In this document: positions 14,211-34,970 of the stretch, piece by piece | How positions within the stretch are numbered: position 1 is the stretch's first letter | How the letters are laid out: each line of letters begins with the position of its first letter | Source of the DNA: an uncultured Bacillales bacterium | Lineage (GTDB): Bacteria > Bacillota_I > Bacilli_A > RF39 > UBA660 | NCBI GenBank assembly: GCA_947303225.1 | Contig: CAMYXG010000001.1 | Coordinates: 1 to 34,970, forward strand | DNA: 34,970 bases | Direction of reading: 5' to 3' | Made by a program: the position numbers and the translations under genes | The notes under the pieces: model-generated | Database searches by the model: none | What the model saw: only the letters and a program-made list of their open reading frames with translations | What the model was told of the DNA's origin: nothing

Positions 14211-15927
14211 ATGAAGAAAAAAGTGGTTGTATTGTTAGTTATTGCTTTTATTTTAGCATTGGTGTGGTTTTTAGTTTTATCTCCAATTTTTACTTTTCGT
14301 CAAAATGAAAAGATGGTGGAGAATGCTGCTAGGGAATATTTTGAATTAAATTCTAGAGAATTACCTACTGGGGAAAGAGTAAAGACAGTATCTTTAAAGA
14401 CATTGTATTATAATAAATTTTTGGAAAAAGATATTTATGTTCCTTTTCAAAGGAAGAACTGTTCCTTAGATGATAGTTGGGTAAAGGTAAAACGTGTAGA
14501 TGGAAAATATGAATATTATACCTATTTGGATTGTGGAATTATCAAGTCTTCTATTGATGCTAAGGGTCCAGAAATTCGTTTAAAGGGTAATACTACTATG
14601 TCTTTAAGCTTAGGAGAAGAATATCAAGAATTAGGAGTATCTAGTGTTGTAGATGATGTGGATGGTAATTTAAAGGTTGATGATGTTGTTATTAAGGGAA
14701 GTGTTGATACTTCTAAGATAGGAAATTATGAGATTACTTATACGGCTTTTGATCATTTAAGTAATAAAACAACTGTTACTAGAACTGTTCGTGTAGTTCA
14801 AAAGTTATATCAAACAGTGAAGAAGCAACTAAATGATTCTACGAATTATGTTGGGTATCCTGAAAATAATTATTTAAGACTTTCTAATATGCTTTTTCGT
14901 ATTTATGGTGTGGATGATAATAAGAATGTTATTATTGTTGCAGATGAAGATGTTACAAATGTTAATTATTCTAAAATAGATAAATGGTTAAAATACTATT
15001 ATGATCATTTAAATAAAAAGACAAAGAAAATGATTGTTCCATCAAAATATTGTAATATGACAATAGATGAGGCTAATCTTGGTACAAAAGAATGTAGTTC
15101 CTATACAAATAATAAAAAGGTATATATCCCTTCTGTAGTGGAAGTTAATAAAGCTCAGGGTACTGATAATAATTTTATGAAGACTAGAACTATGTCTTGG
15201 GTTTCTAATATGCAGGATGCGAAGAAAGCTTATTTAACAAGAGATGTTTTCTATTATTAAGCATATGGAAAGAGTTTTTTAGCTTATGATGCTGATGAGA
15301 ATTATGGAATTCGACCAATGATGGTAATTAAAGGTGGATCTCAAATTCAGAGTGGTGATGGTAGTTATGAAAAGCCTTATACTTTTGGAGATAGTAAGTC
15401 TGGTTCTGGTGGTTCTCTTCTTAAAGAACGCTCTACTGGAGAATACTTAGAGCTTAGTGGAATTTTATTCCGAATTATAGATGTGTGAAAATTCTGATAA
15501 AATAACATATGATCCAGCTGATAAAACGAGTGTAGCTTATTTTATTAATAATCGAATTAGTGAATATATTGATACTTCATTCTTTCAAAAGCATGAAATC
15601 GAAGTGCCAGTTTATAAAGATAAGATTATTTATGGTGAAGAAATTTCTAAGAAAAAGTATACTGTTTTGTTAGCAGCACCAGATATGTATGAAATGTTTA
15701 GTGCACAATCATCTACTTTACAAGGAAACATTTCTTTGTCTTATTGGTTAAGGAATACTTCTCAAGCAGAAAGAATAGGGGCTGCTGTATATGATGCTGG
15801 AGTACCTGTTAATGAGAAGATTAATTCTTTTGATCAGTATGGAATACGTGTTGAAGGATTTATTAAGGGTGATAGTGTAATTAACCGAGGAAATGGTACT
15901 CTAGCTTCACCTTATAAATTGAGATGA
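14211..15927 (+). pseudogene. Disrupted paralog of the membrane-anchored Ig-like/adhesin-like gene at 21626-23428
   Basis: ORFs 14211-15260 and 15481-15927 align with the N- and C-terminal parts of the 600-aa protein. An in-frame TAA at 15258-15260 is followed by 220 nt that still read through in the same frame (AYGKSFLAYDADENYGIRPMMVIKGG...GILFRIID). About 29 codons present in the paralog are then missing, and the frame shifts near 15480. Confidence 0.8.
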
Positions 15928-15946
15928 TGCTTTTGGGGGGATTACA

Positions 15947-16744
15947 TTGAGGTTTAAAACTAAATATTTAATTATTAGTTGCTTATTGATTATTTTTGTT
16001 GTTGGAATATCATTTCTATTATCAAAAGAGAAAAGTCATTATCAAATTGAATCTAGGTTGTCAAATGTTCTTGCTACTAAGATTGATGTAGATAATGGGT
16101 TCCATACAATTGGTTGGATTCGTGTTCAAGGTACTAATATTGATTATCCTATTATTCGGTCGGATGATGTACATGCAAATTTTCCAGTTCAATTAGAAAG
16201 TTTTTCATGGTCTTTAAATCATGATGATCAATATCATAATCATATCATCTTGATGGGACATAATATTTTTAATCTTTCTGCTACTCCAAAAAGTCATGAT
16301 GAGAGATTTCATCGCTTTGAAGAATTAATGAATTTTGTTTATTATGATTTTGTAAAGGATAATCAGTTTATTCAATTAACGATTGATGGGAAAGAGTATC
16401 TTTATAGAGTGTTTGCTGTTGGTTTTTTAAATGAATCAGATCTTTATAGTCTTCTTTCTCCTGATGATTATTCAAAAAAAGATTTGAATCAGTATTATCA
16501 ATTGATGGATGATATTAATATTTATAATTATGATGTTGATGTGAATGAGAATGATGATATTATTACTCTTTCTACTTGTACTCGTCTTTTTGGAGATGGT
16601 TATAAAACTGGATTTTATGTAAGCGGAAGATTATTAAGAAAGGAAGAATCTACTTATCTTTCTTCCGTAAGAAAAAGTAAAAAGTATCAAGAAGTTGAAA
16701 AGATTTGGAAGGGAGATGTAACAGATAATGAAGATTATGCATAA
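15947..16744 (+). CDS. Sortase-fold protein, class B-like, N-terminally membrane anchored (cassette A)
   Basis: GWIRVQGTNIDYPII, IILMGHNIF (catalytic His context), YLYRVFAV and IITLSTCTR (catalytic Cys context) parallel the S. aureus SrtB motifs GWIKLSGTSLNYPVL, ILYGHH and IMTLSTC. TTG start after a gggggg RBS. Confidence 0.7.
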   Translation: MRFKTKYLIISCLLIIFVVGISFLLSKEKSHYQIESRLSNVLATKIDVDNGFHTIGWIRVQGTNIDYPIIRSDDVHANFPVQLESFSWSLNHDDQYHNHIILMGHNIFNLSATPKSHDERFHRFEELMNFVYYDFVKDNQFIQLTIDGKEYLYRVFAVGFLNESDLYSLLSPDDYSKKDLNQYYQLMDDINIYNYDVDVNENDDIITLSTCTRLFGDGYKTGFYVSGRLLRKEESTYLSSVRKSKKYQEVEKIWKGDVTDNEDYA

Positions 16745-19451
16745 AAAAATTATTATTCTTTTATTATTATTGATGGCTTTTATTCCTAGAACTGTATCAG
16801 CTACTATCAAAAAAGGGAATGGTTCTGAAACATGTACTAATTATATTAAAGACATGGATGATGGAACTGGATTTATTTCTAAGTATGGAATTAGTTTACA
16901 AACTAAGCAAGATAAGTTTGTTTTAAAAATAACTAAGTCAAAGATGTCTGCTGCTGCTAAAAAGGAAAAAGATGTTAAGTTTAAGATTGTGAAAATAGCA
17001 ACTTTTTCTCAGTATGATGATTATGACAATCCAATTTTCGATTCGGAAATTACTAGTGCAAAAGTGATTAAAAATGATTATATTCTATCTAATGATAATG
17101 CATTGGTTCCTGGTGGTACTTTAAATGTTAAGTTGATTGCAAAACCTGGGGTTGCTATATTTATAGAGCCAGATGGTTTTAGTGATTCTGAATTAACAAA
17201 AAAATGTGGTAGTAAAGCTTATTTTACTGTTTTATTTACTGGATTTCCTGCTGAAGGTGATATTCCAGAAACTGATGATGTAACAGATAAGGAAATAAAA
17301 AGTCCAGATGGTGACGATATTAGTAGTAAAAAAATCATAGATTGTAATAATTATAAGAATAAGGGGTGGAGTACATCTGGTTTTAATTATCAATTCTGTG
17401 ATGTTAAGACAAAAGCCATTCAAGCAAACGGTGGTGAAAAGAGTAATAGTGTTACTCAGAAATTGAAATGTGATGTTACAAAATGGAATTATACTTCAGA
17501 TTATTATGTCAATAAAACATATTTATGGAAAACGAAAACAAAAAATATTAAAAATGAAAAAGTTACTAATGAAGATGGTACAGAACAAAAACTTGGTAAT
17601 TTGGTTTATTATTATAACTATACTTGTGGAAATAAAAATGGGGATCCTCAGAATGTTGGTTCTTGTAAATTAACATGTGAAGAAGCTGTTATTGTTGAAT
17701 ATGGTCCTCCAATTGCTTCTAAAGCTGGACTTTGTTTTGAATATAAAGTGAAAGTTACAAGTCGTGTTAGTTGTGGTGTTGATCAATATCCACCAAAACC
17801 AACTAGAGGTAAATTATGTACGCCTTCTCCTCAATGTACGGTTCCAGGAAGTGGAATTGTGCATACACAAGGTGGACCTAATGAAGACTTTGATGCTTGT
17901 ATTCAATCTTGTGATGGTGGTAGTTATTCTGATAAGTGTAGTAATTTCTGTTATCAAAAAGTTTATGGCGATTCTAGTGTTAAAAAGACTTCTGGTTATG
18001 AGCTTAATTATGCAGATAAGTTAAATTCAGTAGTTAATTCTTCTACTGTAGAACAAGTTCGAAATGGAGCAACGACACATGAATACTATTGTGATAGTAA
18101 CAATAATATTATTTGGAATACTGGACCTACTGGTTTATCTAGAGATTCTAGTATGGGAAGGGGAAATCCAAATGATCCAAGATGGCATAGAGAGCATTCT
18201 AGTTGGGGTATTAGTCCAATGTCTGGCTATCAGTGTTATTCTGCAACTGGTATTCCAAGACGTTGTAATTGTGGAGAAACATGTACTTGGACAAAAGGAA
18301 GTTGCTCTAGTGTAACGAAATCTTATATGAATCCTGGTGAGGCTACTGATGCATATAATGATAATGTAGATCGTTATAATAATTACGTAAAGTATTGTAA
18401 TCGTGCTGCGACATGTACTACTACTACAGCTACTTTTACAATTAGTACTTCTGTAGGAAAAACTAAGTACACATTCCCATATTCTACGGATGCTGATCAA
18501 TTACAATATAAAGGACTAAAAACTAAGAAAACTATTCTTTCTAATAAAGGATGCTATTCTAGTGATGACTCAGAGGATCTTTCTCATGAATGGTATTTGG
18601 CAGAATGGAGTTTTCCTGGAACATTTATTCATAATAAGACTGGTGAGATATCTTATGAAAATAAAATAGAGAATTCTGGATGGCAAAAGGTTGATAAGAA
18701 ATTCTGTTTACCTCTTAATGCTCCTAGTGTTAATCAAAAATGGTGGAATTATTATTATACTAAAGAATCTAGTGGTTCTAAGACGTATTCTTTTGAGACA
18801 ACGGAATATAAAGATAATTGTCCTCAGACGTGTCGATTTACTACAGTTTCTAGTATTGCTCCTGGTGATATTTCAAAATGGAATATTAATGCTGTAACGA
18901 AAAAATTTGGACATTATGGTTGGAATATTACTATCTCTTGCTTCTATGCTTTAAATAATAATGTTACTTTAACGACAAAAAAATGTACAGTACCTGAGTG
19001 TAAAACATCTAATCCACAGGCTTATCGAATTCGTTCTGTTGATTTGGGTAACTTATTCCCTAATCCTGATGGTTCCTCAATATCTAATTATACTGAAATT
19101 GGAAGGGCTCCTGGATTCAATTGGAGTAGTAGCGCAAAAAATACTGTTAAGGATCCAAAATTAAAGAGTAATGCTAGTACCTATGCTAAGGCTGTTCAGA
19201 AGAAGGCTGATAAAGTATATAATTCTAGTTCTGAATTGGATTATCATATTTATTTGACTAAGGATATCATCAAAAAAATTAAATCAACTGGTCAGAATTA
19301 TACTTCATATTCAGGCTCTACAAGTATTACTAATGTTAGTCATTATCAAAGTGATTTAATTCGTAATGTAATTGGTGCAACTGAAATTCCTCAACCAGGA
19401 GATTTACAATGCAACAATTTACTTAATCGAAAATGTTCTACTAATAAATAA
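16728..19451 (+). CDS. Large secreted cysteine-rich protein of unknown family (cassette A, intact)
   Basis: 907-aa ORF. Signal peptide KKIIILLLLLMAFIPRTVSA|T. About 33 Cys by my count. No C-terminal sorting signal. Paralog of 24252-26930. Confidence 0.85.
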   Translation: MKIMHKKIIILLLLLMAFIPRTVSATIKKGNGSETCTNYIKDMDDGTGFISKYGISLQTKQDKFVLKITKSKMSAAAKKEKDVKFKIVKIATFSQYDDYDNPIFDSEITSAKVIKNDYILSNDNALVPGGTLNVKLIAKPGVAIFIEPDGFSDSELTKKCGSKAYFTVLFTGFPAEGDIPETDDVTDKEIKSPDGDDISSKKIIDCNNYKNKGWSTSGFNYQFCDVKTKAIQANGGEKSNSVTQKLKCDVTKWNYTSDYYVNKTYLWKTKTKNIKNEKVTNEDGTEQKLGNLVYYYNYTCGNKNGDPQNVGSCKLTCEEAVIVEYGPPIASKAGLCFEYKVKVTSRVSCGVDQYPPKPTRGKLCTPSPQCTVPGSGIVHTQGGPNEDFDACIQSCDGGSYSDKCSNFCYQKVYGDSSVKKTSGYELNYADKLNSVVNSSTVEQVRNGATTHEYYCDSNNNIIWNTGPTGLSRDSSMGRGNPNDPRWHREHSSWGISPMSGYQCYSATGIPRRCNCGETCTWTKGSCSSVTKSYMNPGEATDAYNDNVDRYNNYVKYCNRAATCTTTTATFTISTSVGKTKYTFPYSTDADQLQYKGLKTKKTILSNKGCYSSDDSEDLSHEWYLAEWSFPGTFIHNKTGEISYENKIENSGWQKVDKKFCLPLNAPSVNQKWWNYYYTKESSGSKTYSFETTEYKDNCPQTCRFTTVSSIAPGDISKWNINAVTKKFGHYGWNITISCFYALNNNVTLTTKKCTVPECKTSNPQAYRIRSVDLGNLFPNPDGSSISNYTEIGRAPGFNWSSSAKNTVKDPKLKSNASTYAKAVQKKADKVYNSSSELDYHIYLTKDIIKKIKSTGQNYTSYSGSTSITNVSHYQSDLIRNVIGATEIPQPGDLQCNNLLNRKCSTNK

Positions 19452-19473
19452 TAGTAAGGAGGGATAATAATAT

Positions 19474-19962
19474 ATGAATAAAGGTATGTTAACGGTTGGA
19501 ATTATTCTTTTGAGTGTTATTGCATTATTATTAATTAATGTTTTAAATAATTATATGACTGGTGGGGAACTTGATTATTATTTAGTGAAGGAAACTGCTG
19601 ATGCTGCTATGGAAGATGCAATGGATAAAATGTATTTAAGAACATGCGGATTGCCACGTATGGATAAGGAAAAATTTGTAGAAAATTTTGTTTATCGTTT
19701 TGCAAATAGTGTCGATTCTAATCGTGAATATGATTTGAAATTTTATGACTTAAATGAAGTTCCTCCAAAGATTACTGTAGAAGTAAACTCGTTGACCGTT
19801 TTATCTTTTAATGTATCTGGAGAAAAAAATAGTAAACAAGCAGCTAATATTTCTACAAAATATAGTGCTATAGCAGAGTCTTCTTATTATAGTGATCCTG
19901 CTGTAGAAGAAGGTTTTACAAATAATATTTCTAAAAAAGATCAATGTAAACCTTATAAATAG
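19474..19962 (+). CDS. Small prepilin-like / N-terminally anchored protein (cassette A)
   Basis: RBS aaggaggg. A 4-residue leader MNKG is followed by a 20-residue hydrophobic stretch MLTVGIILLSVIALLLINVL. Two conserved Cys. Paralog of 26946-27464. Confidence 0.8.
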   Translation: MNKGMLTVGIILLSVIALLLINVLNNYMTGGELDYYLVKETADAAMEDAMDKMYLRTCGLPRMDKEKFVENFVYRFANSVDSNREYDLKFYDLNEVPPKITVEVNSLTVLSFNVSGEKNSKQAANISTKYSAIAESSYYSDPAVEEGFTNNISKKDQCKPYK

Positions 19963-19963
19963 T

Positions 19964-19999
19964 AAAAAAAGATGACTTCATCTTTTTTTCTTTTTTTTC
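19964..19999 (+). terminator. Rho-independent terminator ending cassette A
   Basis: Stem aaaaaaagatg (19964-19974) pairs with catcttttttt (19979-19989) around loop actt, followed by an extended T-tract. Confidence 0.75.
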
Positions 20000-20028
20000 T
20001 TTCCAAATTTTATAAAATGAGATATACT
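20000..20028 (+). promoter_or_regulatory. Candidate promoter of the 20062 gene / cassette B / tad-like operon
   Basis: tttcca, a 17-nt spacer, then TATACT (20023-20028). It resembles 14146-14174. Confidence 0.35.
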
Positions 20029-20061
20029 TATATAGAATGATAATAGGGGAGTGTGAACTTT

Positions 20062-23428: not shown

Positions 23429-23443
23429 AAAAGGAGTAGTAGT

Positions 23444-24286: not shown

Positions 24287-24569
24287 GAGAATATTGGGGT
24301 TATCTATTCTAGTGCTTATTGTATCTGTTTTTTCATTCTTACAAGTTCAAGCAAAAACAAAAGAAGAATGGAAAGCATATTGTAAGGATTATCTTCCTAA
24401 TACGAAGTTTGTTTCAAGATATAATGCTACGATTGAAGAAGTTGATATTACAGATAGTGGTCTTGCTTCTAAATATAAAATATCAATTAATCCAAAGTCA
24501 TCTGATGCAGATTTAAAAAAGGCTTTGAGAAAAATTGTTTTTGTAGTTTCAGAGGTTAATGGTAAGTAA
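24252..24569 (+). CDS. N-terminal (signal-peptide) fragment of the cassette B cysteine-rich protein, ended by an in-frame TAA
   Basis: Signal peptide RILGLSILVLIVSVFSFLQVQA|K. It is in the same frame as 24654-26930, and the 84 nt between them contain no other stop. Confidence 0.6.
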   Translation: MMMTMIRTVRCKRILGLSILVLIVSVFSFLQVQAKTKEEWKAYCKDYLPNTKFVSRYNATIEEVDITDSGLASKYKISINPKSSDADLKKALRKIVFVVSEVNGK

Positions 24570-24653
24570 CAAGATGGAAAACAAACTGTTTCTTATAAAT
24601 ATCCACTTATCATTAAGGGTAGTTTTACAAAAGATTCTTCTGGAGAACAGAAG

Positions 24654-26930: not shown

Positions 26931-26945
26931 GAGGTTTAAGATTAT

Positions 26946-27464: not shown

Positions 27465-27482
27465 TCGAAAGGAGAGAATAAA

Positions 27483-28295
27483 ATGGGTAATTTATCTACT
27501 GGGTTAAAAAAGTTTATGCAAAATAAGAATACTGTTACAGTAGTTGGTGTTGTTGCTGCTATTATTGTATTGTATTTTGCTTATACTATGCGTATTAGTT
27601 CTGCTATTAATCCAATTCGAGTTCCTTATGCAAAGGAACAAATTCCTGCAGGTACTCAAATTACGGAAGCAATGATTGAGACGATGGAAGTACCTCCTTC
27701 AATGCTAGAGGGTGATGTAATTCAAAATACTGGTGAAATCATTGATAAGTATGCTGCTGCTGATACTGTTATTCCAGCTGGAAGTTTGTTTTATAAGCGA
27801 GCAGTGGTAGAAAAAGAACAATTGCCTGCTAATATTATTTTGGAATATCCAAAGGGATATGTTTTATATAATTTATCTGTTGATACTACTTCTACTTATG
27901 GTAATTCTGTATATCCAGGTAATTATATTGATATTTATTTAAAAGCAGTAAATGTTGTTGATGAGTCTAGTCCTGCTAATTTAACAAAAGATGCTGATAA
28001 GATTATGTTAGGAAAACTAATGGCTAATATTGAGGTATTAGCAGTTAAGGATGCTGATGGTCAACCAGTTTTCCAAAATATTGATGAGAATAGAGTTCCT
28101 GCTATGGTTGTATTTGCTCTTCCTGAGGAATACTATGTTCTTCTAAAAAAAGCAGAAGAGATGAGAACTTATGATACTTCAATTATTTTAGTTCCTACGA
28201 ATGAAAGTTTAAAAGATGAGCCAGCTGAACTTGAAATTAGTAGTGAACAATTAAAAGATTGGATTAATACTAATACTTTTTGGACAGATAATTAA
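27483..28295 (+). CDS. cpaB: Flp pilus assembly protein CpaB/RcpC-like (SAF plus RcpC-type domains)
   Basis: N-terminal TM segment. SAF-like IRVPYAKEQIPAGTQITEAMIETMEVPPSML...TVIPAGSLF, then RcpC-like GYVLYNLSVDTTSTYGNSVYPGNYIDIYL...IEVLAV...MVVFALPEEYYVLLKKAEE...IILVP. Confidence 0.75.
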   Translation: MGNLSTGLKKFMQNKNTVTVVGVVAAIIVLYFAYTMRISSAINPIRVPYAKEQIPAGTQITEAMIETMEVPPSMLEGDVIQNTGEIIDKYAAADTVIPAGSLFYKRAVVEKEQLPANIILEYPKGYVLYNLSVDTTSTYGNSVYPGNYIDIYLKAVNVVDESSPANLTKDADKIMLGKLMANIEVLAVKDADGQPVFQNIDENRVPAMVVFALPEEYYVLLKKAEEMRTYDTSIILVPTNESLKDEPAELEISSEQLKDWINTNTFWTDN

Positions 28296-28319: not shown

Positions 28320-29909
28320 ATGAACGAAAATATTTTTGATAAGTTAGATTTTGGACCTTTTCGTTCCTTATTGGATAATGATGATATAACTGATATTTCC
28401 TATGATAATAATGGTCAAATTTGGATTCGTTCTTTGACTCAGGGTTCTCTTAGAGTTGAAGTTGAAGGTGCGACTCCTGAATTTGTGGAAAAATTAGCTT
28501 TTCAATGTTCTAATGTTATGGGTACTACTTTTAATAATGCTAAACCTTTTTTAGATGCTGAATCTGCAGAGTTACGTATGAACTTTGTTCATCAAAGTAT
28601 TGCGACGAATGGGATTGCTCTTGTTATACGTAAAACTCCTGCTAAGATTCGTTTGGAAAAAGAAAAGTTAATTCAAGAAGATTATTTTACTCCTGCGATT
28701 CATGATTTTCTTATTAAATGTGTTGAGGGACATTGTAATATTATGGTTGCTGGAGAAACTGGTTCTGGTAAAACTGAGTTTGTTAAGTATTTGGCGAGTC
28801 ATACAAAGACTAATGAGAAAATTATTACGATTGAGGATACTTTGGAATTGCATTTAGATAAGATATTCCCTCAGCGTGATATTGTTTCTATGAAAACGAA
28901 TAATGTTGCTAGTTATTCTGATGTTTTAGTTACTTGTATGCGTCAGAATCCAAAATGGATTCTACTTTCGGAAGTTCGTTCCGCAGAGGCTGTTTCTGCT
29001 GTTCGTAACTCTATTTCATCAGGACATAATATTTTATCCACAATTCATGCGGATAAAGCATCTGCTATTCCATATCGTTTATATTCTTTGATGGAAACTG
29101 ATTTGGATGTTCATCAGTTTTTAACAACGATTTATCGTTATATTCAATTAGGTGTACATATTAAGGCTTTTTATAGTAAAGAATATGGAAAGTTTCATCG
29201 TGAATTAGATGAAGTTTGTGAATTTTATGTAGATGATGATAATGTTCCTCGTTCAAGGATTATTTATCAAAAACTATTTGGAAAACCTATGATGTGTAAA
29301 CCAAGTGCACATTTGGTTGAATATTTGGAAAATCAAAATATTCAAGTTCAAGATATTATTAAGGATTTGCCTGAAGAACTTCCTATACATAAATTTGAAG
29401 AGGAAAAGGATACTCAAGCAAAAGAAGGGGATACTCAAGAAGTATCTAAAGATGAAGAAACGGTTGCTCAGGAAACTGTTGCTGAAAATGATAATACTTC
29501 ATTAAATGATTCTATTGATTCTGCACAGGATGCTTCGGAGGTGGAAAAAACTCCAGATGTGATATCTCCACCAGTTTCAGTTACTCCTGATGCTAGTAGT
29601 GTTGTTTCATCTGTTCCAGAAGACGTTTCTGTAGCTTCTACACCTCCTACTGTTTCAGCACCTGCAGTTCCAGAGGTTACTCCTGTTGCGCCTACTTCTA
29701 CTGTTGAACAAGTTTCACAAGTTAATGATAGTGTAGGATCTGTTGCACCTGCTGTGAGTGTTCCGGTACCATCTGTTGCTAGTATTGCACCTGCGGTAAG
29801 TCCTATTGTTCCACAACAACAAGTTGTGATTCAAGCTAATGTTCCACCAACAGTTCCTCCTGTTGTTGGAGTTGCACCTGCTGTTGCAGTGGCTAAGCTT
29901 GGAGAATAA
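28320..29909 (+). CDS. tadA: TadA/CpaF-like (VirB11-type) secretion ATPase with a long low-complexity C-terminal tail
   Basis: Walker A VAGETGSGKTEF, Walker B-like WILLSEVRSAEA and His-box GHNILSTIHADKA. The last 170 aa or so are acidic and then P/V/S/A-rich. Confidence 0.85.
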   Translation: MNENIFDKLDFGPFRSLLDNDDITDISYDNNGQIWIRSLTQGSLRVEVEGATPEFVEKLAFQCSNVMGTTFNNAKPFLDAESAELRMNFVHQSIATNGIALVIRKTPAKIRLEKEKLIQEDYFTPAIHDFLIKCVEGHCNIMVAGETGSGKTEFVKYLASHTKTNEKIITIEDTLELHLDKIFPQRDIVSMKTNNVASYSDVLVTCMRQNPKWILLSEVRSAEAVSAVRNSISSGHNILSTIHADKASAIPYRLYSLMETDLDVHQFLTTIYRYIQLGVHIKAFYSKEYGKFHRELDEVCEFYVDDDNVPRSRIIYQKLFGKPMMCKPSAHLVEYLENQNIQVQDIIKDLPEELPIHKFEEEKDTQAKEGDTQEVSKDEETVAQETVAENDNTSLNDSIDSAQDASEVEKTPDVISPPVSVTPDASSVVSSVPEDVSVASTPPTVSAPAVPEVTPVAPTSTVEQVSQVNDSVGSVAPAVSVPVPSVASIAPAVSPIVPQQQVVIQANVPPTVPPVVGVAPAVAVAKLGE

Positions 29910-29923: not shown

Positions 29924-30826
29924 ATGTATATTGAAGAGTTATTCATTATTATTGTCTTTGTAGTTGCTATTTATTTATATAGAAATTATCAGGGAGATAA
30001 TGTAGGTAAATATGTATTGGAACAAGTACAAGGAGCTTACGATCGTTTTGCACCTTATTCTTTTAAGGTTGTTCGTGAAAAGACAAAGCAGTTGGGAGAA
30101 GAGTATACTCCTAGACAATATGCTATACAAGTTTCTTTATTTGCTTCTTTTGCTGCAGTTGTTACTTATTTATACTTTTATAATTTAATTATTAGTATTA
30201 TTTATGCTTTAATTGCTGTATCATTTGTTCCTTATTTGACTTATTTAAGATGTAAAAAGACTTATTCCGAATTTTTATTTGAACAAGTTCAAGTATACAC
30301 TTCTAATACTATTATGGAGTTTGCTACTACGCAGTCTTTTGTTAAAGCACTAGAAGGTGTTGCCAATTCCGGTATTTTGGAAGATCCTGTTCTTAGTGAT
30401 GTTCGTCAAATGATTACTATGTCTTATGATAATGGTACGATTGATGAAGCATTAGAATATATGAGTAAGTTATATCCTTATTATATTGTTAAGAATATGC
30501 ATCAGTTGTTTTTACAAATAACTAAAGAGGGTGCTCAAAATTCTGCAGATTCTCTTGAAAATATGCAGTTAGATATCGATATGCTTGTTGAAAGTGTGTA
30601 TCGAGATCGTATTGAACGTGCATCTTTCCACAAATCCTTTTTACAGTTTGGTATTATGCTGTATTTAATGGTTATGTTAGTTCAGTATTTGTTGGGAAGA
30701 GAAACCTATTTGGTACTACTAGAACGATGGTATATTCAAGTTCTAATGCATGGAGTACTGATTATTAATACATATTTCCTTTTAAAAGGTGAAAAATACT
30801 ATAATGAAAATGTAGGTGCTGAGTAA
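29924..30826 (+). CDS. tadB: TadB-like inner-membrane platform protein (T2SSF-type topology)
   Basis: Topology is N-terminal TM, TM pair, about 130-aa soluble domain, then C-terminal TM pair. It sits immediately after the ATPase and is coupled to the next gene by a TAATG overlap. The call rests on topology and synteny, not on a strong motif. Confidence 0.6.
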   Translation: MYIEELFIIIVFVVAIYLYRNYQGDNVGKYVLEQVQGAYDRFAPYSFKVVREKTKQLGEEYTPRQYAIQVSLFASFAAVVTYLYFYNLIISIIYALIAVSFVPYLTYLRCKKTYSEFLFEQVQVYTSNTIMEFATTQSFVKALEGVANSGILEDPVLSDVRQMITMSYDNGTIDEALEYMSKLYPYYIVKNMHQLFLQITKEGAQNSADSLENMQLDIDMLVESVYRDRIERASFHKSFLQFGIMLYLMVMLVQYLLGRETYLVLLERWYIQVLMHGVLIINTYFLLKGEKYYNENVGAE

Positions 30827-31629
30827 TGGAAATACTAATCGTAGGAGCTATTATTATCTTTATTTTAATCTATAATAATACCATCGATAAAGATAAGTTT
30901 TTTGCTGATAATCAAAAGTATTTGGAAGCATTAAAAGAGGATGATTATCAGTTCTTAGTTTATGCTCGTTATGGTGAAGATGTTGATGTTGATCAACTTT
31001 ATTCTAAAAGAGTTACTTATGCATTTATTGCTTTTCTTGTTGTATTAGTATTATCCATTTCTAATAATAATAGTGTGGAGATTATTAATTCTCAATTTTT
31101 CTTAAACTTAGTTTTATCTATTGTTGTTGCTGTTGTTATTTTTAAGGTACCATATAGTCAGTTAAAAAGTTATTATAAACAGCATTTACATGAAATAGAT
31201 GTTATGTTGCCATATTATTTGAAAAGTTTAGAGATTTTAATACAGCATTATACAGTTCCTGTTGCTATTGGTAAATCTATTGGTGATGCGCCTGATATTT
31301 TTAAGCCAGGATTACGTCGTATGATAGATCGTATCAATTCAGGTGATGCATCTGTTGATCCTTATATGGAATTTGCGAATACATATCCTGTTCGAGATTC
31401 TATGAGAATGATGCGTTTGCTATATCGTTTAGGAATTGGTTCACAAGAGAAAAAACAAGAAAGATTGATGATGTTTTCAAGAACTGTATCTTCTTTACAG
31501 AATAAAGCGAGAGAGACAAAATATAAAGAACGTTTAAATCACATGGAAAGTCAAACAATGATTATGTTGGTTGTAACTGGTGTTGGAGTTATGCTTGTCA
31601 TTTTGATTTCTATGATGATGATGTTCTAA
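30826..31629 (+). CDS. tadC: TadC-like inner-membrane platform protein (T2SSF-type topology)
   Basis: Same architecture as the preceding gene (N-terminal TM, TM pair, soluble domain, C-terminal TM). Second of the usual TadB/TadC pair. Confidence 0.6.
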   Translation: MEILIVGAIIIFILIYNNTIDKDKFFADNQKYLEALKEDDYQFLVYARYGEDVDVDQLYSKRVTYAFIAFLVVLVLSISNNNSVEIINSQFFLNLVLSIVVAVVIFKVPYSQLKSYYKQHLHEIDVMLPYYLKSLEILIQHYTVPVAIGKSIGDAPDIFKPGLRRMIDRINSGDASVDPYMEFANTYPVRDSMRMMRLLYRLGIGSQEKKQERLMMFSRTVSSLQNKARETKYKERLNHMESQTMIMLVVTGVGVMLVILISMMMMF

Positions 31630-31635: not shown

Positions 31636-31664
31636 TTGATATTTTATTTATGATTTGTTATAAT
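31636..31664 (+). promoter_or_regulatory. Near-consensus sigma-A promoter inside the operon, in front of the small pilin-like ORF
   Basis: TTGATA (31636-31641), exactly 17 nt, then TGtTATAAT (31656-31664). Confidence 0.65.
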
Positions 31665-31698: not shown

Positions 31699-31866
31699 AT
31701 GAAAGCTGCTACAGGTGAATTAAACTTAACAGTTATTACTTTGATTGCAATTGCTGCTGTTATTGGATTTTTCTGGATGATGTGGCCAAAAATTCAGAGT
31801 TCTATTAATACTCAATGGGATGATATCAATACTTATAAATCAAATAGCCAAAGTAAAGGAAGTTAA
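31699..31866 (+). CDS. 55-aa Flp-like pilin candidate (absent from the ORF track)
   Basis: ATG 31699 follows RBS aaagga. The product is MKAATGELNLTVITLIAIAAVIGFFWMMWPKIQSSINTQWDDINTYKSNSQSKGS: a short leader ending in Gly, a hydrophobic helix of roughly 20 residues and a short polar tail. It occupies the flp position between the tadC-like and tadE-like genes. Confidence 0.6.
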   Translation: MKAATGELNLTVITLIAIAAVIGFFWMMWPKIQSSINTQWDDINTYKSNSQSKGS

Positions 31867-31944: not shown

Positions 31945-32379
31945 ATGCAAGATGCTTTTGGTGGTATTTTAAATATTGTATTAATTGTTATATTTCTTGT
32001 TATTGTAGAGGGAATATTAGGGTTTACTGTCAACTATACAAAGGCTTTTAAAATGAAAAATATAGTTATTTCTGCAATCGAAGAATATGAAGATGCTAAT
32101 TGTACTGATACTTCAAAGAGTACTAGTGCTTGTCGTCAGAAGATTAAGAGTGGTGCTATGCGCATTGGATATTCTCCCACTCAATTGAATTGTCCTAGTG
32201 GTTCTGAATGGAAAAAAATCGATGGTTTATTTTGTGTCAAGAGATCTAAATCTCATAGTGGATATTATATTTATCGTATTGTAACACAGGTAGATATTAA
32301 TATTCCTATTGTTAGAAATATTATGGGATTTTCTTTTTTTCAAGTATCAGGAGATACTAGAGTTGTTCAAAAACAATAG
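31945..32379 (+). CDS. Pseudopilin-like protein (TadE/TadF position), 144 aa
   Basis: ATG 31945 lies 8 nt after gggagg; the track TTG 31939 is too close to the RBS. Leader MQDAFGG, then ILNIVLIVIFLVIV and VNYTKAFKMKN. Four Cys conserved with the next gene. Confidence 0.6.
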   Translation: MQDAFGGILNIVLIVIFLVIVEGILGFTVNYTKAFKMKNIVISAIEEYEDANCTDTSKSTSACRQKIKSGAMRIGYSPTQLNCPSGSEWKKIDGLFCVKRSKSHSGYYIYRIVTQVDINIPIVRNIMGFSFFQVSGDTRVVQKQ

Positions 32380-32396: not shown

Positions 32397-32831
32397 ATGC
32401 GTGATGCTCTTGGAGGAACTGTTAATATTGTAATTATTGTTGTTTTTATTGTTGTTGTAGCTTATTTAGCTTTTAATGTAAATTATACAAAGGCATTTCG
32501 TATGAAAAATAAGATTATTGCTACTTATGAGGATTATGGTGGAAATTGTGATTCAAAATGTAGAAAAGTAATTAAAAATTATGCAAATGATGTTGGATAT
32601 AATGTAGGTGGACATATCTCTTGTCAAAGTGATTGGAAACCTGATTCTACTAATTTGTTTTGTTATAGAGAAATTACTGTAAATCAAAGAACTAGTGATA
32701 CTAGTGTTGATGAAAAAGATTCAAAGCATTATTATAAGATTGCTACTAGAATTAATATTGAAATTCCCATTATACAAAATATTTTTAGTTATCAATTGTT
32801 TTGGGTTACTGGTGATACAAAGAGTTTTTAA
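32397..32831 (+). CDS. Pseudopilin-like protein (TadE/TadF position), 144 aa, paralog of the preceding gene
   Basis: Leader MRDALGG, then TVNIVIIVVFIVVV and VNYTKAFRMKN. It shares the C-terminal motifs I-x-IPI-x-x-NI and GDT. Confidence 0.6.
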   Translation: MRDALGGTVNIVIIVVFIVVVAYLAFNVNYTKAFRMKNKIIATYEDYGGNCDSKCRKVIKNYANDVGYNVGGHISCQSDWKPDSTNLFCYREITVNQRTSDTSVDEKDSKHYYKIATRINIEIPIIQNIFSYQLFWVTGDTKSF

Positions 32832-32856: not shown

Positions 32857-33873
32857 ATGAATGTAATTGTAGCAAATGAACAGCAAAATCAATTGTCTAA
32901 TTTAGATATTGATATTATAAAAAGTGTTAGTGGTGTTTATGATGCTTCTGAAATTGTAGAAATGTTCAAGAGCTTTTTTTATAGTAAGATGATTTTAGAT
33001 GTTTCTTCTCTTAAAAACTACTCTGATATAAAGACATATGAATTGTTAGTACAAGGATTAGATGCTGATAAAATTATTTTTTTATTGCCAGAAGGTAGTC
33101 AACTATGTACGCCTAATTTTTTATCGCAATTGATTTCTATTGGAATTTATAATTTTACTACTAATTTAAATGGTATTAAGTATTTATTAAAGAAACCTAA
33201 TTCTTTGAAAGATGTAGAACATATTCGCAATATGGCAACGATTCATGATTCTGATGAAGCAGGAGCTGCTGTAGCGACTGTTGCTACTACTTCAAAAGTT
33301 CAAGATGGATCTACAATTATTGGGGTAAAAAATATTACGGAACATGCTGGTGCTACTACGTTTATTTATTTATTAAAAAAAGAGTTAGCTTTTACGTATG
33401 GTGCAGACAATGTTATTGCTATTGAAATTGATAAGAATGATTTTCAATTATTTCGAGATAAAAATATGATTTCTGTTAAACAAGCGGAAATTAAGAATGC
33501 TATACAAAAGTATTCTTCAGCATCTTTTATTTTAATTGATTTGAATACTTCAACAGATGATAGTTTTTGTGGTGATGTCTTGTATTTAATGGAACCTAGT
33601 ACTATTCGATTAAATCGTTTGGTTACTAGAAATAAGTTTGTGTTTACGAAATTAGTTAATAAAAAAGTTGTTTTAAATCAGAGCTTATTATTAAATAATG
33701 ATGTTTTTGATTTTGAAAAAGAAGCGGGTATTAAAGTATTTTATAATATGCCTCCTCTTGATGAAAGAAAGAGGAATGGTGTTGTAAATGATTTTCTTTC
33801 AAAATTGGGTGTTTTGAATGAAAAGAATCATAATAGTAATTCTGGTAAAATATTTGGATTATTTCGTCGTTAA
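32857..33873 (+). CDS. TadZ/CpaE-like protein: receiver-like N-domain plus MinD/ParA-like domain with a degenerate Walker A
   Basis: STIIGVKNITEHAGATTFIYLLKKELA sits where the deviant Walker A (KGGxGKT) would be, followed by a FILIDLN Walker-B-like strand. The N-terminal ~110 aa alternate hydrophobic strand-like and polar segments in a receiver-like way, but I see no obvious phosphoacceptor. Assignment is weak. Confidence 0.45.
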   Translation: MNVIVANEQQNQLSNLDIDIIKSVSGVYDASEIVEMFKSFFYSKMILDVSSLKNYSDIKTYELLVQGLDADKIIFLLPEGSQLCTPNFLSQLISIGIYNFTTNLNGIKYLLKKPNSLKDVEHIRNMATIHDSDEAGAAVATVATTSKVQDGSTIIGVKNITEHAGATTFIYLLKKELAFTYGADNVIAIEIDKNDFQLFRDKNMISVKQAEIKNAIQKYSSASFILIDLNTSTDDSFCGDVLYLMEPSTIRLNRLVTRNKFVFTKLVNKKVVLNQSLLLNNDVFDFEKEAGIKVFYNMPPLDERKRNGVVNDFLSKLGVLNEKNHNSNSGKIFGLFRR

Positions 33874-33931: not shown

Positions 33932-34237
33932 ATGGATTCTTGTATGGGTTTGACGCCAATTGTTAGAGTTATTAAGCATGGAGTTTTTCCTATTGTACAA
34001 TTGGGAATTCCTATTCTTTTGATTGTATTTGGAACTATTGACTTAGGTAAAGCAGTTATTGCTAGTGAAGAAAAAGAAGTTAAGGCTGCTCAAAGTCGTT
34101 TAATTAAGAGATTTATTTATGCTGCACTTGTATTCTTTATTTCTACAATGGTTTATGCACTTATGAATATTGTAGGAACAGGTGGAGCAGAAGATGCTAA
34201 CACTAGTAGTTGGGCTAGATGTTGGGAAGATGCTTAA
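33932..34237 (+). CDS. Small two-TM membrane protein, VirB2/TrbC-like (pilin-like conjugal-transfer-protein type)
   Basis: Two-TM hairpin: GVFPIVQLGIPILLIVFGTIDLGKAV, then the charged loop ASEEKEVKAAQSRLIKR, then FIYAALVFFISTMVYALMNIV. The pattern resembles Gram-positive and mollicute VirB2-like pilins. Confidence 0.5.
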   Translation: MDSCMGLTPIVRVIKHGVFPIVQLGIPILLIVFGTIDLGKAVIASEEKEVKAAQSRLIKRFIYAALVFFISTMVYALMNIVGTGGAEDANTSSWARCWEDA

Positions 34238-34323: not shown

Positions 34324-34818
34324 ATGAAAAAGACGTTTATTATGATATTTTTTGTTGGTATTCTATTTTTTTGTTCTCCAACAACTAGTTATGCTTTAGA
34401 TGTTCATTCTTTTTCATCTTATTTTTCGAATTCTATATCTATTTTAGAAAAAAAAGAAGTGAATGGTGGAATTGGTTCTGTTGATGATGCTGGAATAGAT
34501 ATGAGTAAATATAATCAAGATGTAGATTGTGAAGGTTTATTGGGAAATCCGGCATCTGATACTGAATCTGTGGCTTGGCTAATACAAAAGGCATTAGATA
34601 TTGTAAAGATAGTTGGGCCTTTATTGGTTGTTGTTTTAAGTAGTGTTGATTTTGCAAAAGTTATTGTAACAAGTGATGATGAAGCAATGGCTAAAGCTGC
34701 TAAAAAGTTAGCAATACGATTAGTGTTAGCAGCTGCATTGTTCTTTATTCCTGTTTTAACTACAGCTATGTTACAAGTTTTTGGTATTTTTGGAGATCCA
34801 ACTTGCAATATTCAATAA
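34324..34818 (+). CDS. Secreted/membrane VirB2/TrbC-like protein, longer paralog-type of 33932-34237
   Basis: Signal peptide IMIFFVGILFFCSPTTSYA|L, then the hairpin IVKIVGPLLVVVLSSVDFAKVIV / TSDDEAMAKAAKKLAIR / LVLAAALFFIPVLTTAMLQVFG. Confidence 0.5.
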   Translation: MKKTFIMIFFVGILFFCSPTTSYALDVHSFSSYFSNSISILEKKEVNGGIGSVDDAGIDMSKYNQDVDCEGLLGNPASDTESVAWLIQKALDIVKIVGPLLVVVLSSVDFAKVIVTSDDEAMAKAAKKLAIRLVLAAALFFIPVLTTAMLQVFGIFGDPTCNIQ

Positions 34819-34833
34819 ATGAGGTGATGATGA

Positions 34834-34970
34834 ATGGGTGAAACTGATTTAACAAAAGCAGATTTTCAACATGATGTTATTCGTTTGGCTTTTTCAATGC
34901 TTGATAGGCCCTTTTTTTGGTTGCTTACACTTTTGTATCAATTGTTTTTTAATGTTGCTTCTGTTGAATT
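34834..34970 (+). CDS. Partial ORF (5' end only) continuing beyond the window
   Basis: ATG 34834 lies 6 nt after gaggtga. It reads MGETDLTKADFQHDVIRLAFSMLDRPFFWLLTLLYQLFFNVASVE and is open to the window edge, with a hydrophobic segment beginning. Function unknown. Confidence 0.45.
   Translation, partial: MGETDLTKADFQHDVIRLAFSMLDRPFFWLLTLLYQLFFNVASVE

Follow-up and report, generated by a model that had tools for sequence, protein, structure and literature searches.

The DNA analyzed here, a stretch of 34,970 nt (the window), is in our reading, held with moderate confidence, part of a chromosomal cluster of ~33 kb and ~28 genes that joins a surface cassette, a Tad-like module, and a conjugation-type type IV secretion system (T4SS) of the monoderm kind. 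We think it fairly probable that the window carries the leading two thirds of this operon. The first module consists of TM520, an Ig-like/DUF6273 protein, a SrtB-like transpeptidase, a Cys-rich orphan, and a pilin-like DUF5411 protein. Genes of the second encode a CpaB-like protein, an ATPase resembling CpaF/FlaI, a platform protein of the GspF family together with another polytopic partner, a 55-aa Flp-like subunit that has a conserved promoter to itself, and either one or two pseudopilin-like proteins. The third contains a pair of pilin paralogs resembling VirB2, along with VirB6/TrbL, VirB4 in split form, a wall hydrolase of the SpoIID/M23 type, and VirD4. The combination is apparently undescribed, and the literature searched contained no published account of such a cassette combined with a type IV-filament-like module. 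All data come from metagenome assemblies.

Gene order, T4SS continuation, and genomic setting

Nineteen genes, all in one direction on the + strand, occupy positions 14211-34818, in line with the ~20 co-directional genes of a first-pass annotation. The conserved order, TM520, Ig-like, sortase, Cys-rich, DUF5411, cpaB, and ATPase, followed by t300, t267, flp, pseudopilin, t338, t101, and t164, was repeated in 79 species-level genome loci, and so in at least 79 species, as well as in 18 out of 18 long metagenome loci. Linkage of the cassette with the Tad-like genes is far beyond chance. The first-pass annotation had proposed that type IV-filament-like machinery is linked with a sortase-containing cassette, while allowing that the two might be adjacent in this one genome only. 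The recurrence in at least 79 species bears out the linkage, speaks decisively against a single-genome coincidence, and supports a physical and evolutionary tie between the two modules. The hosts are uncultured small-genome gut Bacilli, at least partly of the order RF39.

The surface cassette evolves fast, and the Tad-like module is very strongly conserved. The Cys-rich protein had a median identity to the window of 33%, the sortase 40%, and TM520 and the Ig-like protein 46-49%; the median was 81% for the platform proteins (73-98% identical between species), 79% for the Flp-like protein, and 71% for the ATPase.

The upstream flank and the part of the T4SS within the window are as follows:

13140-13682, + strand: greA and a terminator-like hairpin with U-run, the conserved upstream flank, outside the system
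33932-34237 and 34324-34818, + strand: t101 and t164, two T4SS-pilin-like (VirB2-like) paralogs with two transmembrane (TM) helices (Pfam T4SS_pilin)
34834-34970, + strand: 5' end of a TrbL_4/VirB6-like channel gene, the final 137 bases, cut at the contig end

The T4SS_pilin model was matched by 24 out of 38 t101/t164 family members scanned (best 6.1e-7), with the 164-aa window copy at 16.5 bits, below the cutoff; the two window copies are paralogous (E 5e-7). The genes had been described as running off the 3' edge, and a TrbL/VirB6-like gene indeed starts in the last 137 bases. Its first 45 codons (34834-34968) share 54% identity over 39 aa (E 4e-15) with the N-terminus of the protein encoded at L119:12043-14403, which matches Pfam TrbL_4 (7e-11). 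In syntenic loci, TrbL is followed by VirB4 (NF045975, 1e-103), a wall hydrolase (SpoIID and M23), VirD4 (NF045973, 293 bits, cutoff 250), and then housekeeping genes. Judging from this synteny, the T4SS genes of this organism beyond the 45 VirB6 codons would lie outside the window. The role of the operon as a T4SS front end was overlooked in the first-pass annotation. VirD4 is split in some contigs, where the transfer function could perhaps be decaying. DNA transfer by the T4SS is only a guess, because no relaxase was found.

The cluster appears, on balance, to be chromosomally fixed between housekeeping genes, given greA upstream, rhodanese and RmuC downstream, the lack of integrase or relaxase, and protein identity that tracks greA. 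The greA hairpin and U-run lie at ~13650-13682 (z-score -2.9), and greA precedes the cluster in 59 out of 79 loci. Rhodanese and RmuC genes follow VirD4 in two of three contigs examined (L161 and L164), with tRNA-synthetase genes further downstream in L161. For most locus proteins, identity rises and falls with that of greA (Spearman 0.37-0.73); for the ATPase and the Cys-rich protein it does not.

Alternatively, the cluster could be an integrated conjugative element (ICE) inserting site-specifically beside greA, its genes devoted to its own transfer, with the cassette as a mating adhesin module comparable to PrgB or the pLS20 TIE protein. This would suit a VirB4 closest to the Mycoplasma ICE family, a VirD4 that passes the cutoff of the CD1115 conjugation family, an ATPase and platform protein homologous to pLS20 conjugation genes, and a cassette that is duplicated and swapped in the fashion of an accessory module. 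The ICEs of Mycoplasma, too, are not known to carry a classical relaxase. We nevertheless consider an ICE unlikely: the flanks are shared, with greA upstream in 59 out of 79 loci and rhodanese/RmuC in both contigs that show the downstream end; no integrase, transposase, or relaxase families were found in the cluster, and no change in GC content was seen across it; the highly similar platform proteins follow greA in identity; and none of 72,556 plasmids carried a sortase, Cys-rich, or DUF5411 homolog.

The Tad-like module and its relatives

Within the favored three-module cluster, the Tad-like module and the adjoining t338 gene comprise:

27483-28295, + strand: CpaB/RcpC-like protein, TM helix at the N-terminus, domains SAF and RcpC
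28320-29909, + strand: secretion ATPase (CpaF/FlaI/VirB11 superfamily), tail of ~185 aa rich in Pro/Val/Ser
29924-30826, + strand: t300, GspF/TadB-family platform protein by remote homology (via intermediates and fold)
30826-31629, + strand: t267, another polytopic membrane protein, placed where TadC would be, at most a tentative homolog
31636-31664, + strand: extended -10 promoter 5' of the Flp-like gene (TTGATA, 17-nt spacer, TGnTATAAT)
31699-31866, + strand: 55-aa Flp-like small pilin candidate (alignment of 63 loci)
31945-32379 and 32397-32831, + strand: pseudopilin-like paralog pair, four Cys each
32857-33873, + strand: t338, conserved cytoplasmic protein, in 62 out of 79 loci

Labels assigned earlier to these genes held up unevenly. 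The cpaB-like label stands through Pfam SAF (23.1 bits, cutoff 21), with RcpC (26.4 bits, cutoff 28.8) and TIGR03177 (2.2e-10; 40 bits, cutoff 71) below their cutoffs, and the tadA/cpaF-like ATPase matches Pfam T2SSE (1.5e-27). Among PDB structures, the ATPase is nearest to FlaI (4.6e-19) and CpaF (3.4e-18), followed by VirB11 (7e-14), and its top NCBIfam match is VirB11 (3.7e-32). For t300, called tadB-like, there was no direct Pfam or PDB sequence match, and the label rests on a transitive link through the distant relatives P0388 and P0357, which score 32.4 and 24.8 bits against Pfam T2SSF (cutoff 25.2). The AF2 model of t300 is closest to the cytoplasmic domains of EpsF/OutF (TM 0.64-0.68, rmsd 3.1-3.4 Å, probability 0.84-0.93), with Foldseek E-values that are not significant. 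The tadC-like label of t267 is without HMM support, as we found no Pfam or PDB match and no detectable family, and TadZ was likewise unsupported for t338, which matched no Pfam, NCBIfam, or PDB profile.

The small proteins resemble pilins in outline. The promoter before the 55-aa gene matches consensus at 11 out of 12 positions, with a -10 box at the equivalent place in 50 out of 53 loci, and the encoded N-terminus, MKAATGELNLTVITLIAIAAVIGFFW, is nearly invariant across the 63 loci. The two pseudopilin-like proteins start with M(R/K)DAxGG and continue into a hydrophobic helix; they are paralogs (36% identity, E 2e-23), as previously proposed, of a gene that is single-copy in most loci. A short charged leader, Gly, and a hydrophobic helix are common to three protein families of the locus. 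A Flp identity was unsupported for the 55-aa protein (no Pfam Flp_Fap match in 20 members), as was the TadE/F label for the pseudopilin-like proteins (no Pfam TadE match in 30 members), and the G/XXXXEY motif is absent from both. Since these models fail and the motif is missing, the Flp-like and pseudopilin-like proteins are candidate subunits of a putative filament. No prepilin peptidase gene was found within the cluster.

Compared with Tad/Flp systems (type IVc; Caulobacter Cpa and Bifidobacterium breve Tad), the window shares a CpaF-like ATPase, a CpaB-like SAF/RcpC protein, a GspF-family platform, a ~50-aa pilin-sized subunit, and pseudopilin-like proteins, in the common order ATPase, platform, platform, pilin, pseudopilins. 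It differs in lacking the Flp motif, Flp and TadE Pfam matches, TadZ/CpaE, and prepilin peptidase, and in placing the module in a T4SS operon behind a sortase cassette. Divergent Tad-like loci have been described in uncultured gut Firmicutes (the TANB77 pilus locus, PMC11680825), as has a DUF5411-containing predicted secretion operon in Roseburia, Ruminococcus, and Eubacterium (PMC9523054). These loci share CpaB, a CpaF/TadA ATPase, TadB/C proteins unrecognizable by sequence, and several small pilin-like proteins, and the latter operons carry DUF5411 alongside CpaF and a PilC/GspF protein. However, their descriptions mention no sortase, Cys-rich giant, or T4SS genes, and they come from class Clostridia, whereas the window comes from Mycoplasma-related Bacilli.

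The nearest studied relative is the conjugation operon of Bacillus subtilis pLS20 (genes 36-45, within genes 34-54), whose layout has been described (PMC8557374; also PMC8092201) and with which the Tad-like and T4SS modules are collinear from gene 36 to gene 54. Sequence comparison demonstrated homology for the ATPase (36.7% identity to gene 37, 4e-41, its best plasmid match) and the platform protein (t300 versus p38, hhalign probability 96.5%, E 9e-10). The weak best pLS20 matches of DUF5411, t267, and t101 are the positional equivalents p36, p39, and p45. The Tad-like module and the VirB11 segment of this operon are homologous. Published work has not read genes 37-41 as a Tad-like module (PMC8557374, PMC8092201). 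Both operons run from a large secreted adhesin without sorting signal, and a small protein whose N-terminus forms a TM helix, to an ATPase of the VirB11/TadA type, a pair of polytopic membrane proteins, and small proteins of one or two TM helices, with VirD4, VirB6, VirB4, VirB8, and a wall hydrolase later. In contrast to the cluster, which sits in the chromosome among housekeeping genes and in which no relaxase was found, pLS20 is a plasmid that has a relaxase and quorum control. It is without sortase, CpaB, Cys-rich protein, Ig-like/DUF6273 protein, and TM520, and its adhesin, which has a thioester domain, bears no relation to the Cys-rich family.

These comparisons also bear on a reading in which the ATPase and its two membrane partners drive the T4SS as a VirB11-type energizer with no filament, the small hydrophobic proteins form channel or stalk, and the sortase anchors a protein encoded elsewhere. 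The VirB11 NCBIfam match, the name VirB11 given to the pLS20 homolog in the literature (PMC8557374), the failed Flp, TadE, and TadZ models, and the missing prepilin peptidase would all fit. We regard it as quite improbable, however, as a GspF-family platform and CpaB are both present and VirB11 proteins pair with neither; the ATPase sequence is nearer to the FlaI and CpaF than to the VirB11 structures; the 55-aa gene is served by a strong, conserved promoter of its own, as major pilin genes are; and leader, Gly, and helix recur in three families.

The surface cassette and its sortase

Upstream of the Tad-like module favored above, two cassettes lie in tandem:

14211-15927, + strand: cassette A Ig-like/DUF6273 pseudogene (ORF pieces 14211-15260 and 15481-15927)
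15947-16744, + strand: cassette A class-B-sortase-like transpeptidase with N-terminal TM helix
16728-19451, + strand: cassette A Cys-rich secreted orphan, intact, 907 aa, Sec signal peptide
19474-19962, + strand: cassette A DUF5411 protein, pilin-like, N-terminus MNKG then hydrophobic helix
19964-19999, + strand: terminator-like hairpin and T-run at the end of cassette A (11-bp stem, loop ACTT)
20053-21615, + strand: TM520, polytopic membrane protein with C-terminal DUF4352-like ectodomain, opening the canonical operon
21626-23428, + strand: intact cassette B Ig-like/DUF6273 protein with an N-terminal TM helix as anchor
23444-24286, + strand: cassette B class-B-sortase-like transpeptidase (Pfam Sortase 2.3e-4, below cutoff)
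24252-26930, + strand: cassette B Cys-rich gene, interrupted (ORF pieces 24252-24569 and 24654-26930)
26946-27464, + strand: cassette B DUF5411 protein (Pfam DUF5411 1.3e-44)

The two cassettes described in the first-pass annotation are not a design feature. A single cassette (TM520, Ig-like, sortase, Cys-rich, DUF5411) is the norm in the 79 genome and 18 long metagenome loci; the window has one more, with one broken gene in each, and the second cassette is a recent, lineage-specific duplication with complementary gene decay. The DNA of the cassette A Ig-like gene shows an in-frame stop codon (TAA, 15258-15260) and a change of frame near 15480; in tblastn, the 619-aa paralog aligned in two frames, through residues 28-446 in one and 463-619 in the other. 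In cassette B, a TAA at 24567-24569 interrupts the reading frame of the Cys-rich gene, which was matched by the A copy in one frame over 24288-26900. Both in-frame stops could have arisen through errors of assembly or sequencing. The cassette B Cys-rich and sortase sequences are 63% and 64% identical to their resident L005 orthologs, and the sortase is 42% identical to its A copy. Given its terminal hairpin at 19964-19989, which a GC-based scan did not pick up, cassette A is probably a separate transcription unit. The gap between cassette B and cpaB (27465-27482) showed no hairpin on folding, in line with the first-pass annotation, which saw no terminator there.

Three of the four cassette protein types named in the first-pass annotation were recovered by HMM: Sortase (A above cutoff, B below), Ig-like/DUF6273, and pilin-like DUF5411 (A copy 6.7e-40). 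TM520 lies upstream of the cassette in ~73 out of 79 loci, and 7 out of 12 family members match DUF4352 (best 2.2e-7). The Ig-like copies match Pfam Bact_surface_Ig-like (A, 8e-19; B, 8e-20), the B copy also DUF6273 (3.6e-7); its conserved start is ATG 21626, versus TTG 21569 for the listed ORF. The predicted ~900-aa protein with ~30 Cys has 33 in the 907-aa A copy and 30 in B, with 19 invariant and 8 near-invariant Cys among 90 sequences. It is a true orphan: no Pfam or PDB profile matched it, its AF2 model (pLDDT 80.6) found no fold match in PDB or BFVD (viral), and of at least 318 homologs none has a Pfam domain or an informative name.

The cassette A sortase passes the Pfam Sortase cutoff (4.7e-8; 33.3 bits, cutoff 26.6), and TIGR03064 matches A (5e-14, below cutoff) and B (3e-10). 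Both fall in a subfamily that is specific to the clade and numbers at least 363 clusters, with C. difficile SrtB as the nearest solved structure (E 5e-13). Since the catalytic residues are conserved among 82 sequences (His105 and Cys211, in TLSTC, 98%; Arg213 93%; Arg228 85%), we predict a SrtB-like, active-looking transpeptidase. Fold family, TLSTC, His, and Arg are shared with class B sortases (C. difficile SrtB 5GYJ, S. aureus SrtB), but the window enzymes fall far short of the SrtB equivalog model (52 bits, cutoff 154) and have no nearby substrate bearing a C-terminal sorting signal. C. difficile SrtB anchors adhesins carried by conjugative transposons, an arrangement comparable to the sortase-plus-T4SS pairing here.

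Nothing in the loci points to a sortase-built pilus, because all 79 lack an LPXTG-type pilin or any other protein with a C-terminal sorting signal (motif, TM helix, and basic tail). The only two conserved candidate sortase sites, both picked after inspection of the data, are LPTG ~30 aa past the TM helix of the Ig-like protein (95% of 77 sequences) and VPTN 34 aa before the CpaB C-terminus (100% of 74 sequences); a looser motif pattern set beforehand showed no enrichment (P = 0.28). A self-contained surface-fiber system, in which a Tad pilus and sortase-polymerized fibers are built together with Cys-rich giants as tip or cargo, the fusion proposed in the first-pass annotation, is therefore very doubtful: sortases with conserved catalytic residues do share an operon with a Tad-like ATPase and CpaB, the linkage is kept in at least 79 species, and the Cys-rich protein is secreted and fast-evolving like an adhesin, but no sorting signal was found in any of these loci, profile searches found no CnaB or SpaA pilin-type domains, one cassette is usual rather than two, and the T4SS continuation is left unexplained.

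Proposed role of the combined operon

For the cluster read as cassette, Tad-like module, and T4SS, we suggest that the ATPase and platform would use the Flp-like and pseudopilin-like proteins as subunits to build a short pilus or piston, which would span the wall beside the T4SS channel and may present or position the variable surface proteins for contact with cells, after which the T4SS would move DNA or protein. More speculatively, the sortase-like enzyme may process or covalently tether a part of the machine rather than polymerize pilins. Gram-positive conjugation-type T4SS are thought to lack pili, hence the interest of a Tad-like pilus motor in such an operon.

Gene layout and conservation across species

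We found the surface cassette and the Tad-like genes joined in a common gene order that recurs in 79 species-level loci, so the linkage noticed in the first-pass annotation extends beyond one genome. We note that filament formation, the substrate moved and the sortase target are all putative functions; metagenome assemblies underlie the whole analysis, together with remote homology. The scan sampled one genome per species, and every locus came from uncultured Bacilli, labelled Erysipelotrichaceae, Mollicutes or Tenericutes. Two of the 79 are from Candidatus Faecimonas (order RF39 in GTDB), in which the type genome of one species measures 1.4 Mb. The order runs (x213), greA, TM520, Ig-like protein, sortase, Cys-rich protein and DUF5411 in its first part, and cpaB, ATPase, t300, t267, flp, one or two pseudopilin-like genes, t338, t101 and t164 in its second.

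The window is a contig taken whole (34,970 bp, GC about 29%), and every gene except one lies on its plus strand. The strongly positive GC skew across the whole window (0.1 to 0.4 per kb), together with the co-orientation of nearly all genes, is consistent with a leading-strand location. Genes at 691-12334 encode a hybrid histidine kinase, a transglutaminase-like protein, TspO, a rhomboid protease, YceG/MltG, two U32 peptidases and an HD phosphohydrolase. About 20 co-directional genes had been claimed, and we counted 19 between 14211 and 34818. The operon does run past the 3' edge, as had been proposed.

Features of the window
4746-5204, minus strand: TspO, the sole minus-strand gene
12396-13037, plus strand: x213, a 213-aa protein of unknown function before greA, conserved in that position in 38 of 79 loci
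14211-19962, plus strand: cassette A
15947-16744, plus strand: sortase gene of cassette A
19964-19999: AT-rich terminator-like hairpin and T-run directly after the cassette A DUF5411 stop, overlooked by a GC-based terminator scan
20000-20066: promoter-like hexamers after the cassette A hairpin
21626-27464, plus strand: cassette B
23444-24286, plus strand: sortase gene of cassette B
27483-28295, plus strand: CpaB-like gene
28320-29909, plus strand: TadA/CpaF-type ATPase gene
31636-31664: extended -10 promoter TGnTATAAT upstream of the 55-aa Flp-like gene, at the same position in 50 of 53 loci
34834-34970, plus strand: start of a TrbL_4/VirB6-like gene, truncated by the contig end

Divergence from the window was very uneven among the locus proteins, as the table shows; x213 shares only about 33% identity between species.

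Median identity of locus proteins to the window
t300 and t267 (polytopic membrane proteins): 81%
Flp-like: 79%
ATPase: 71%
CpaB: 69%
Ig-like protein: 49%
TM520: 46%
Sortase: 40%
Cys-rich protein: 33%

A Tad-like module within a type IV secretion operon

The assignment of the ATPase to the TadA/CpaF type was borne out by Pfam T2SSE (96.6 bits, cutoff 24.9), and its PDB matches placed FlaI (4.6e-19) and CpaF (3.4e-18) ahead of VirB11 (7e-14). Its C-terminal tail of about 185 aa (window ~29350-29909) is rich in Pro, Val, Ser and Ala, and the total length of the ATPase protein across loci ranges from 73 to 734 aa, truncated copies included. The CpaB-like label held for the SAF domain (23.1 bits, cutoff 21) but fell below threshold for TIGR03177 (E 2.2e-10, 40 bits, cutoff 71) and Pfam RcpC (26.4 bits, cutoff 28.8). 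Together, the ATPase and CpaB suggest that the middle module is Tad-like.

Labels for the remaining genes of this module fared less well. Of the two platform proteins, t300 kept its tadB label only through its relatives and its fold, and the tadC label of t267 found no family match in Pfam, PDB profile or ortholog scans. A full-library search with t300 returned distant full-length relatives, two of which, P0388 and P0357, score 32.4 and 24.8 bits against Pfam T2SSF (cutoff 25.2). The t300 model (pLDDT 81.5) superposes best on the cytoplasmic domains of EpsF and OutF (TM 0.64-0.68; Foldseek E-values non-significant). Direct profile searches of PDB sequences gave no match for t300, t267 or the cytoplasmic protein t338, and hhalign detected no signal of paralogy between t300 and t267. 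The TadZ/CpaE label for t338 was not supported: neither it nor 15 orthologs match any family.

The small pilin-like proteins likewise matched none of the Tad families proposed for them. Pfam Flp_Fap is matched by neither the 55-aa window protein nor 20 orthologs, and its N-terminus MKAATGELNLTV has the Gly and a Glu at +1 with no EY, unlike the G/XXXXEY processing motif. Pfam TadE is matched by none of 30 orthologs and by neither window pseudopilin-like protein; all that these share with TadE/TadF is a layout of leader, Gly and hydrophobic helix. The Flp-like, pseudopilin-like and DUF5411 proteins have in common a short charged leader followed by Gly and a hydrophobic helix. A prepilin peptidase (TadV, Peptidase_A24) was absent from the cluster in every locus examined. 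The 55-aa gene also has a conserved upstream ribosome-binding site, GAAAGGA, and its conserved extended -10 promoter suggests an abundant structural subunit.

Beyond the window, the cluster continues as a type IV secretion system (T4SS). A metagenome scan seeded with t338 gave 18 loci of at least 20 kb, all with one gene order in which conserved genes continue past t164: a TrbL_4/VirB6-like gene, VirB4 split in two, a SpoIID and M23 wall hydrolase, and VirD4. In these syntenic loci, which reach beyond the window edge, VirD4 matches NF045973 of the CD1115 family (293 bits, cutoff 250) and Pfam T4SS-DNA_transf (2.6e-28). VirB4 matches NF045975 of the Mycoplasma-ICE family (1.2e-103) and NF045971 (1e-47); its 347 bits against NF045975 fall under the cutoff of 590, as separate genes encode its N-terminal and ATPase parts. 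TrbL_4 scores 42.4 bits (cutoff 27) in locus L119, and its N-terminus is encoded at window 34834-34968. Since this gene starts in the last 137 bases, the T4SS part begins inside the window; save for 45 codons, the T4SS genes of this organism are predicted from synteny. Pfam T4SS_pilin is matched by 24 of 38 orthologs of the VirB2-like pilin paralogs t101 and t164 (best 6.1e-7).

Among plasmid proteins, the ATPase best matches the product of gene 37 of the Bacillus subtilis conjugative plasmid pLS20 (36.7% identity, 4e-41), which has been named a VirB11 homolog, a protein otherwise missing from Gram-positive T4SSs (PMC8557374). The pLS20 gene order resembles that of the cluster: gene 34 encodes an adhesin with no sorting signal, gene 36 a small protein that has a TM helix at its N-terminus, gene 37 the ATPase, genes 38 and 39 polytopic proteins and genes 40, 41 and 45 small TM proteins, followed by VirD4, VirB6, VirB4, VirB8 and VirB1. 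A diverse t300 profile aligned with pLS20 p38 at 96.5% probability. With narrow clade-only profiles, DUF5411, t300, t267 and t101 each found their positional equivalent as the best partner in pLS20, each score being insignificant. The sortase, Cys-rich protein and DUF5411 found no match in plasmids.

Several observations bear on whether the cluster is mobile. A 108-kb contig shows two unknown genes after VirD4, with housekeeping genes beyond them, and no recognisable relaxase or integrase family occurs among the cluster genes or those two. Of the 79 loci, 59 keep the same upstream flank, and the downstream flank (rhodanese and RmuC) is the same in the two of three contigs showing that stretch. 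For most locus proteins, identity climbs with greA identity. Together, these patterns suggest that the cluster is chromosomal and vertically inherited.

In two contigs, L161 (10001-11480; 336 plus 65 aa) and L163 (10001-12405; 426 plus 384 aa), VirD4 is split in two ORFs; a decaying coupling protein or an error in assembly could account for this. L163 (JAFUAL010000013.1), another Bacilli MAG, carries a related T4SS of VirB6-like, TraC-like, VirB4, hydrolase and VirD4 genes. Upstream of it lie a MerR gene and small unannotated genes, with no Tad-like annotation among the called genes shown, some of which lack Pfam matches. A thioester-domain plus SpaA adhesin is encoded a few kb downstream.

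Surface cassettes and the sortase

A single cassette was the rule across loci, and an extra copy occurred only in the window and a few others, so the paired arrangement is not the design of the system. In cassette B, the Cys-rich protein and sortase share 63% and 64% identity with their orthologs in locus L005, and B is the resident copy, A a divergent extra one. Both copies carry interruptions in this metagenome assembly: the cassette A Ig-like gene is broken by an in-frame TAA (15258-15260) and a frameshift near 15480, and an in-frame TAA at 24567-24569 interrupts the Cys-rich gene of cassette B. The hairpin and T-run after cassette A, followed by promoter-like hexamers, suggest that it is probably a separate transcription unit. 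At the 18-nt junction ahead of cpaB, a fold scan showed no hairpin, in agreement with the first-pass view that a terminator is lacking there.

The Cys-rich protein is 907 aa long and has 33 Cys. Among 90 homologs, 19 Cys are invariant and 8 nearly so. Searches of Pfam, NCBIfam and the PDB gave the protein no match, including a Pfam scan of 16 diverse members and a PDB profile search, and its confident structure model (pLDDT 80.6) found no fold match at E <= 0.001 in the PDB or among viral structures. These proteins are an orphan family of large surface proteins, defined by their locus. As for the other cassette proteins, the 619-aa protein contains a bacterial surface Ig-like domain and DUF6273, and two window genes match DUF5411. 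Conserved Cys occur in even or paired numbers in many predicted extracytoplasmic proteins of the operon (14211-34818), with 4 in the Ig-like protein, 4 in each pseudopilin-like protein, 2 in t101, 2 in DUF5411 and about 27 in the Cys-rich protein. This pairing may point to surface parts stabilised by disulfides in a gut anaerobe.

The sortase-fold enzymes were confirmed, as both genes match Pfam Sortase, A above the cutoff and B below it. Against the SrtB equivalog model TIGR03064 they score far under the cutoff of 153.75 (52.2 and 39.7 bits), and the solved structure closest to them is that of C. difficile SrtB (E 5e-13); we read them as SrtB homologs, not equivalogs. More distant outgroup sortases were searched for, and only members of the same clade were returned. 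The catalytic His-Cys-Arg triad expected of a pilus sortase is present: across 82 sequences, His105 and Cys211 (in TLSTC) are 98% conserved, and the Arg has two candidates, Arg213 (93%) and Arg228 (85%).

A sortase-built pilus, as first envisaged, found no support in the candidate substrates. A search of 10,116 ORFs in the window and 79 loci for a C-terminal sorting signal (LPXTG-like motif, TM helix and basic tail) returned just two spurious antisense ORFs, leaving no signal in any locus. No operon protein contains a CnaA, CnaB or SpaA pilin domain by Pfam (the Cys-rich model is also without PDB match), and a conserved xPxT[GN] motif is absent from every family alignment scanned. The single match to a search for xPxT[GNSAD], PPVAS in the Cys-rich protein, was discarded as part of a core beta-strand. 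The locus shows a sortase subfamily without a canonical substrate.

The sole conserved sortase-like motifs in operon proteins are LPTG, about 30 residues past the TM anchor of the Ig-like protein (95% of 77 sequences), and VPTN, 34 residues from the CpaB C-terminus (100% of 74). Enrichment of the strict motif pattern gave P = 0.01, but this pattern was defined post hoc and a looser one showed no enrichment, so we keep both motifs as a lead only. Peptidoglycan is predicted in most RF39 (PMC10868615), and YceG/MltG in the window implies a peptidoglycan wall, which makes a wall-directed sortase reaction possible.

Significance of the combined system

We found no paper describing this cluster in the literature on DUF5411, sortase/Tad, class B sortases and type IV pili, pili or type IV secretion in RF39, and TadA or a pilus in pLS20, in keeping with the initial impression that it maps onto no described system. 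Divergent Tad-like loci have been reported from uncultured gut Clostridia (PMC11680825), and DUF5411 has been seen adjoining CpaF and PilC (PMC9523054); unlike the present cluster, both are described without a sortase, a Cys-rich giant or a T4SS. A monoderm T4SS in which a Tad-like module is embedded is already known. What is new here is its chromosomal fixation and an unprecedented accessory cassette.

One joint reading, which we put forward as speculative and rather unlikely, is that the cluster encodes a non-mobile core-genome organelle of RF39-type gut bacteria, a monoderm T4SS with its own Tad-like pilus. A repurposed sortase would covalently couple or release machine parts, cutting CpaB at VPTN and the Ig-like protein at LPTG, rather than anchoring LPXTG proteins, and the hypervariable Cys-rich protein would be a partner- or host-recognition determinant. 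If true, this would explain how the T4SSs of Gram-positive bacteria reach partner cells and hold on to them, and pLS20-family conjugative plasmids would also carry the same hidden pilus module.

Recent papers describe Gram-positive conjugation systems apparently without pili, and a Tad-like ATPase, platform protein and pilin-like genes inside a T4SS operon bear on the pilus question for these systems. Because the ATPase and platform protein have homologs among the conserved but unexplained genes of pLS20, the question is directly testable in Bacillus subtilis. The 33-kb cluster would take up about 2% of a genome of about 1.4 Mb, the size in at least one carrier genus, the RF39 genus Candidatus Faecimonas. 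Kept in at least 79 species, with a membrane core 73-98% identical, the machine is likely central to the life of these gut bacteria.
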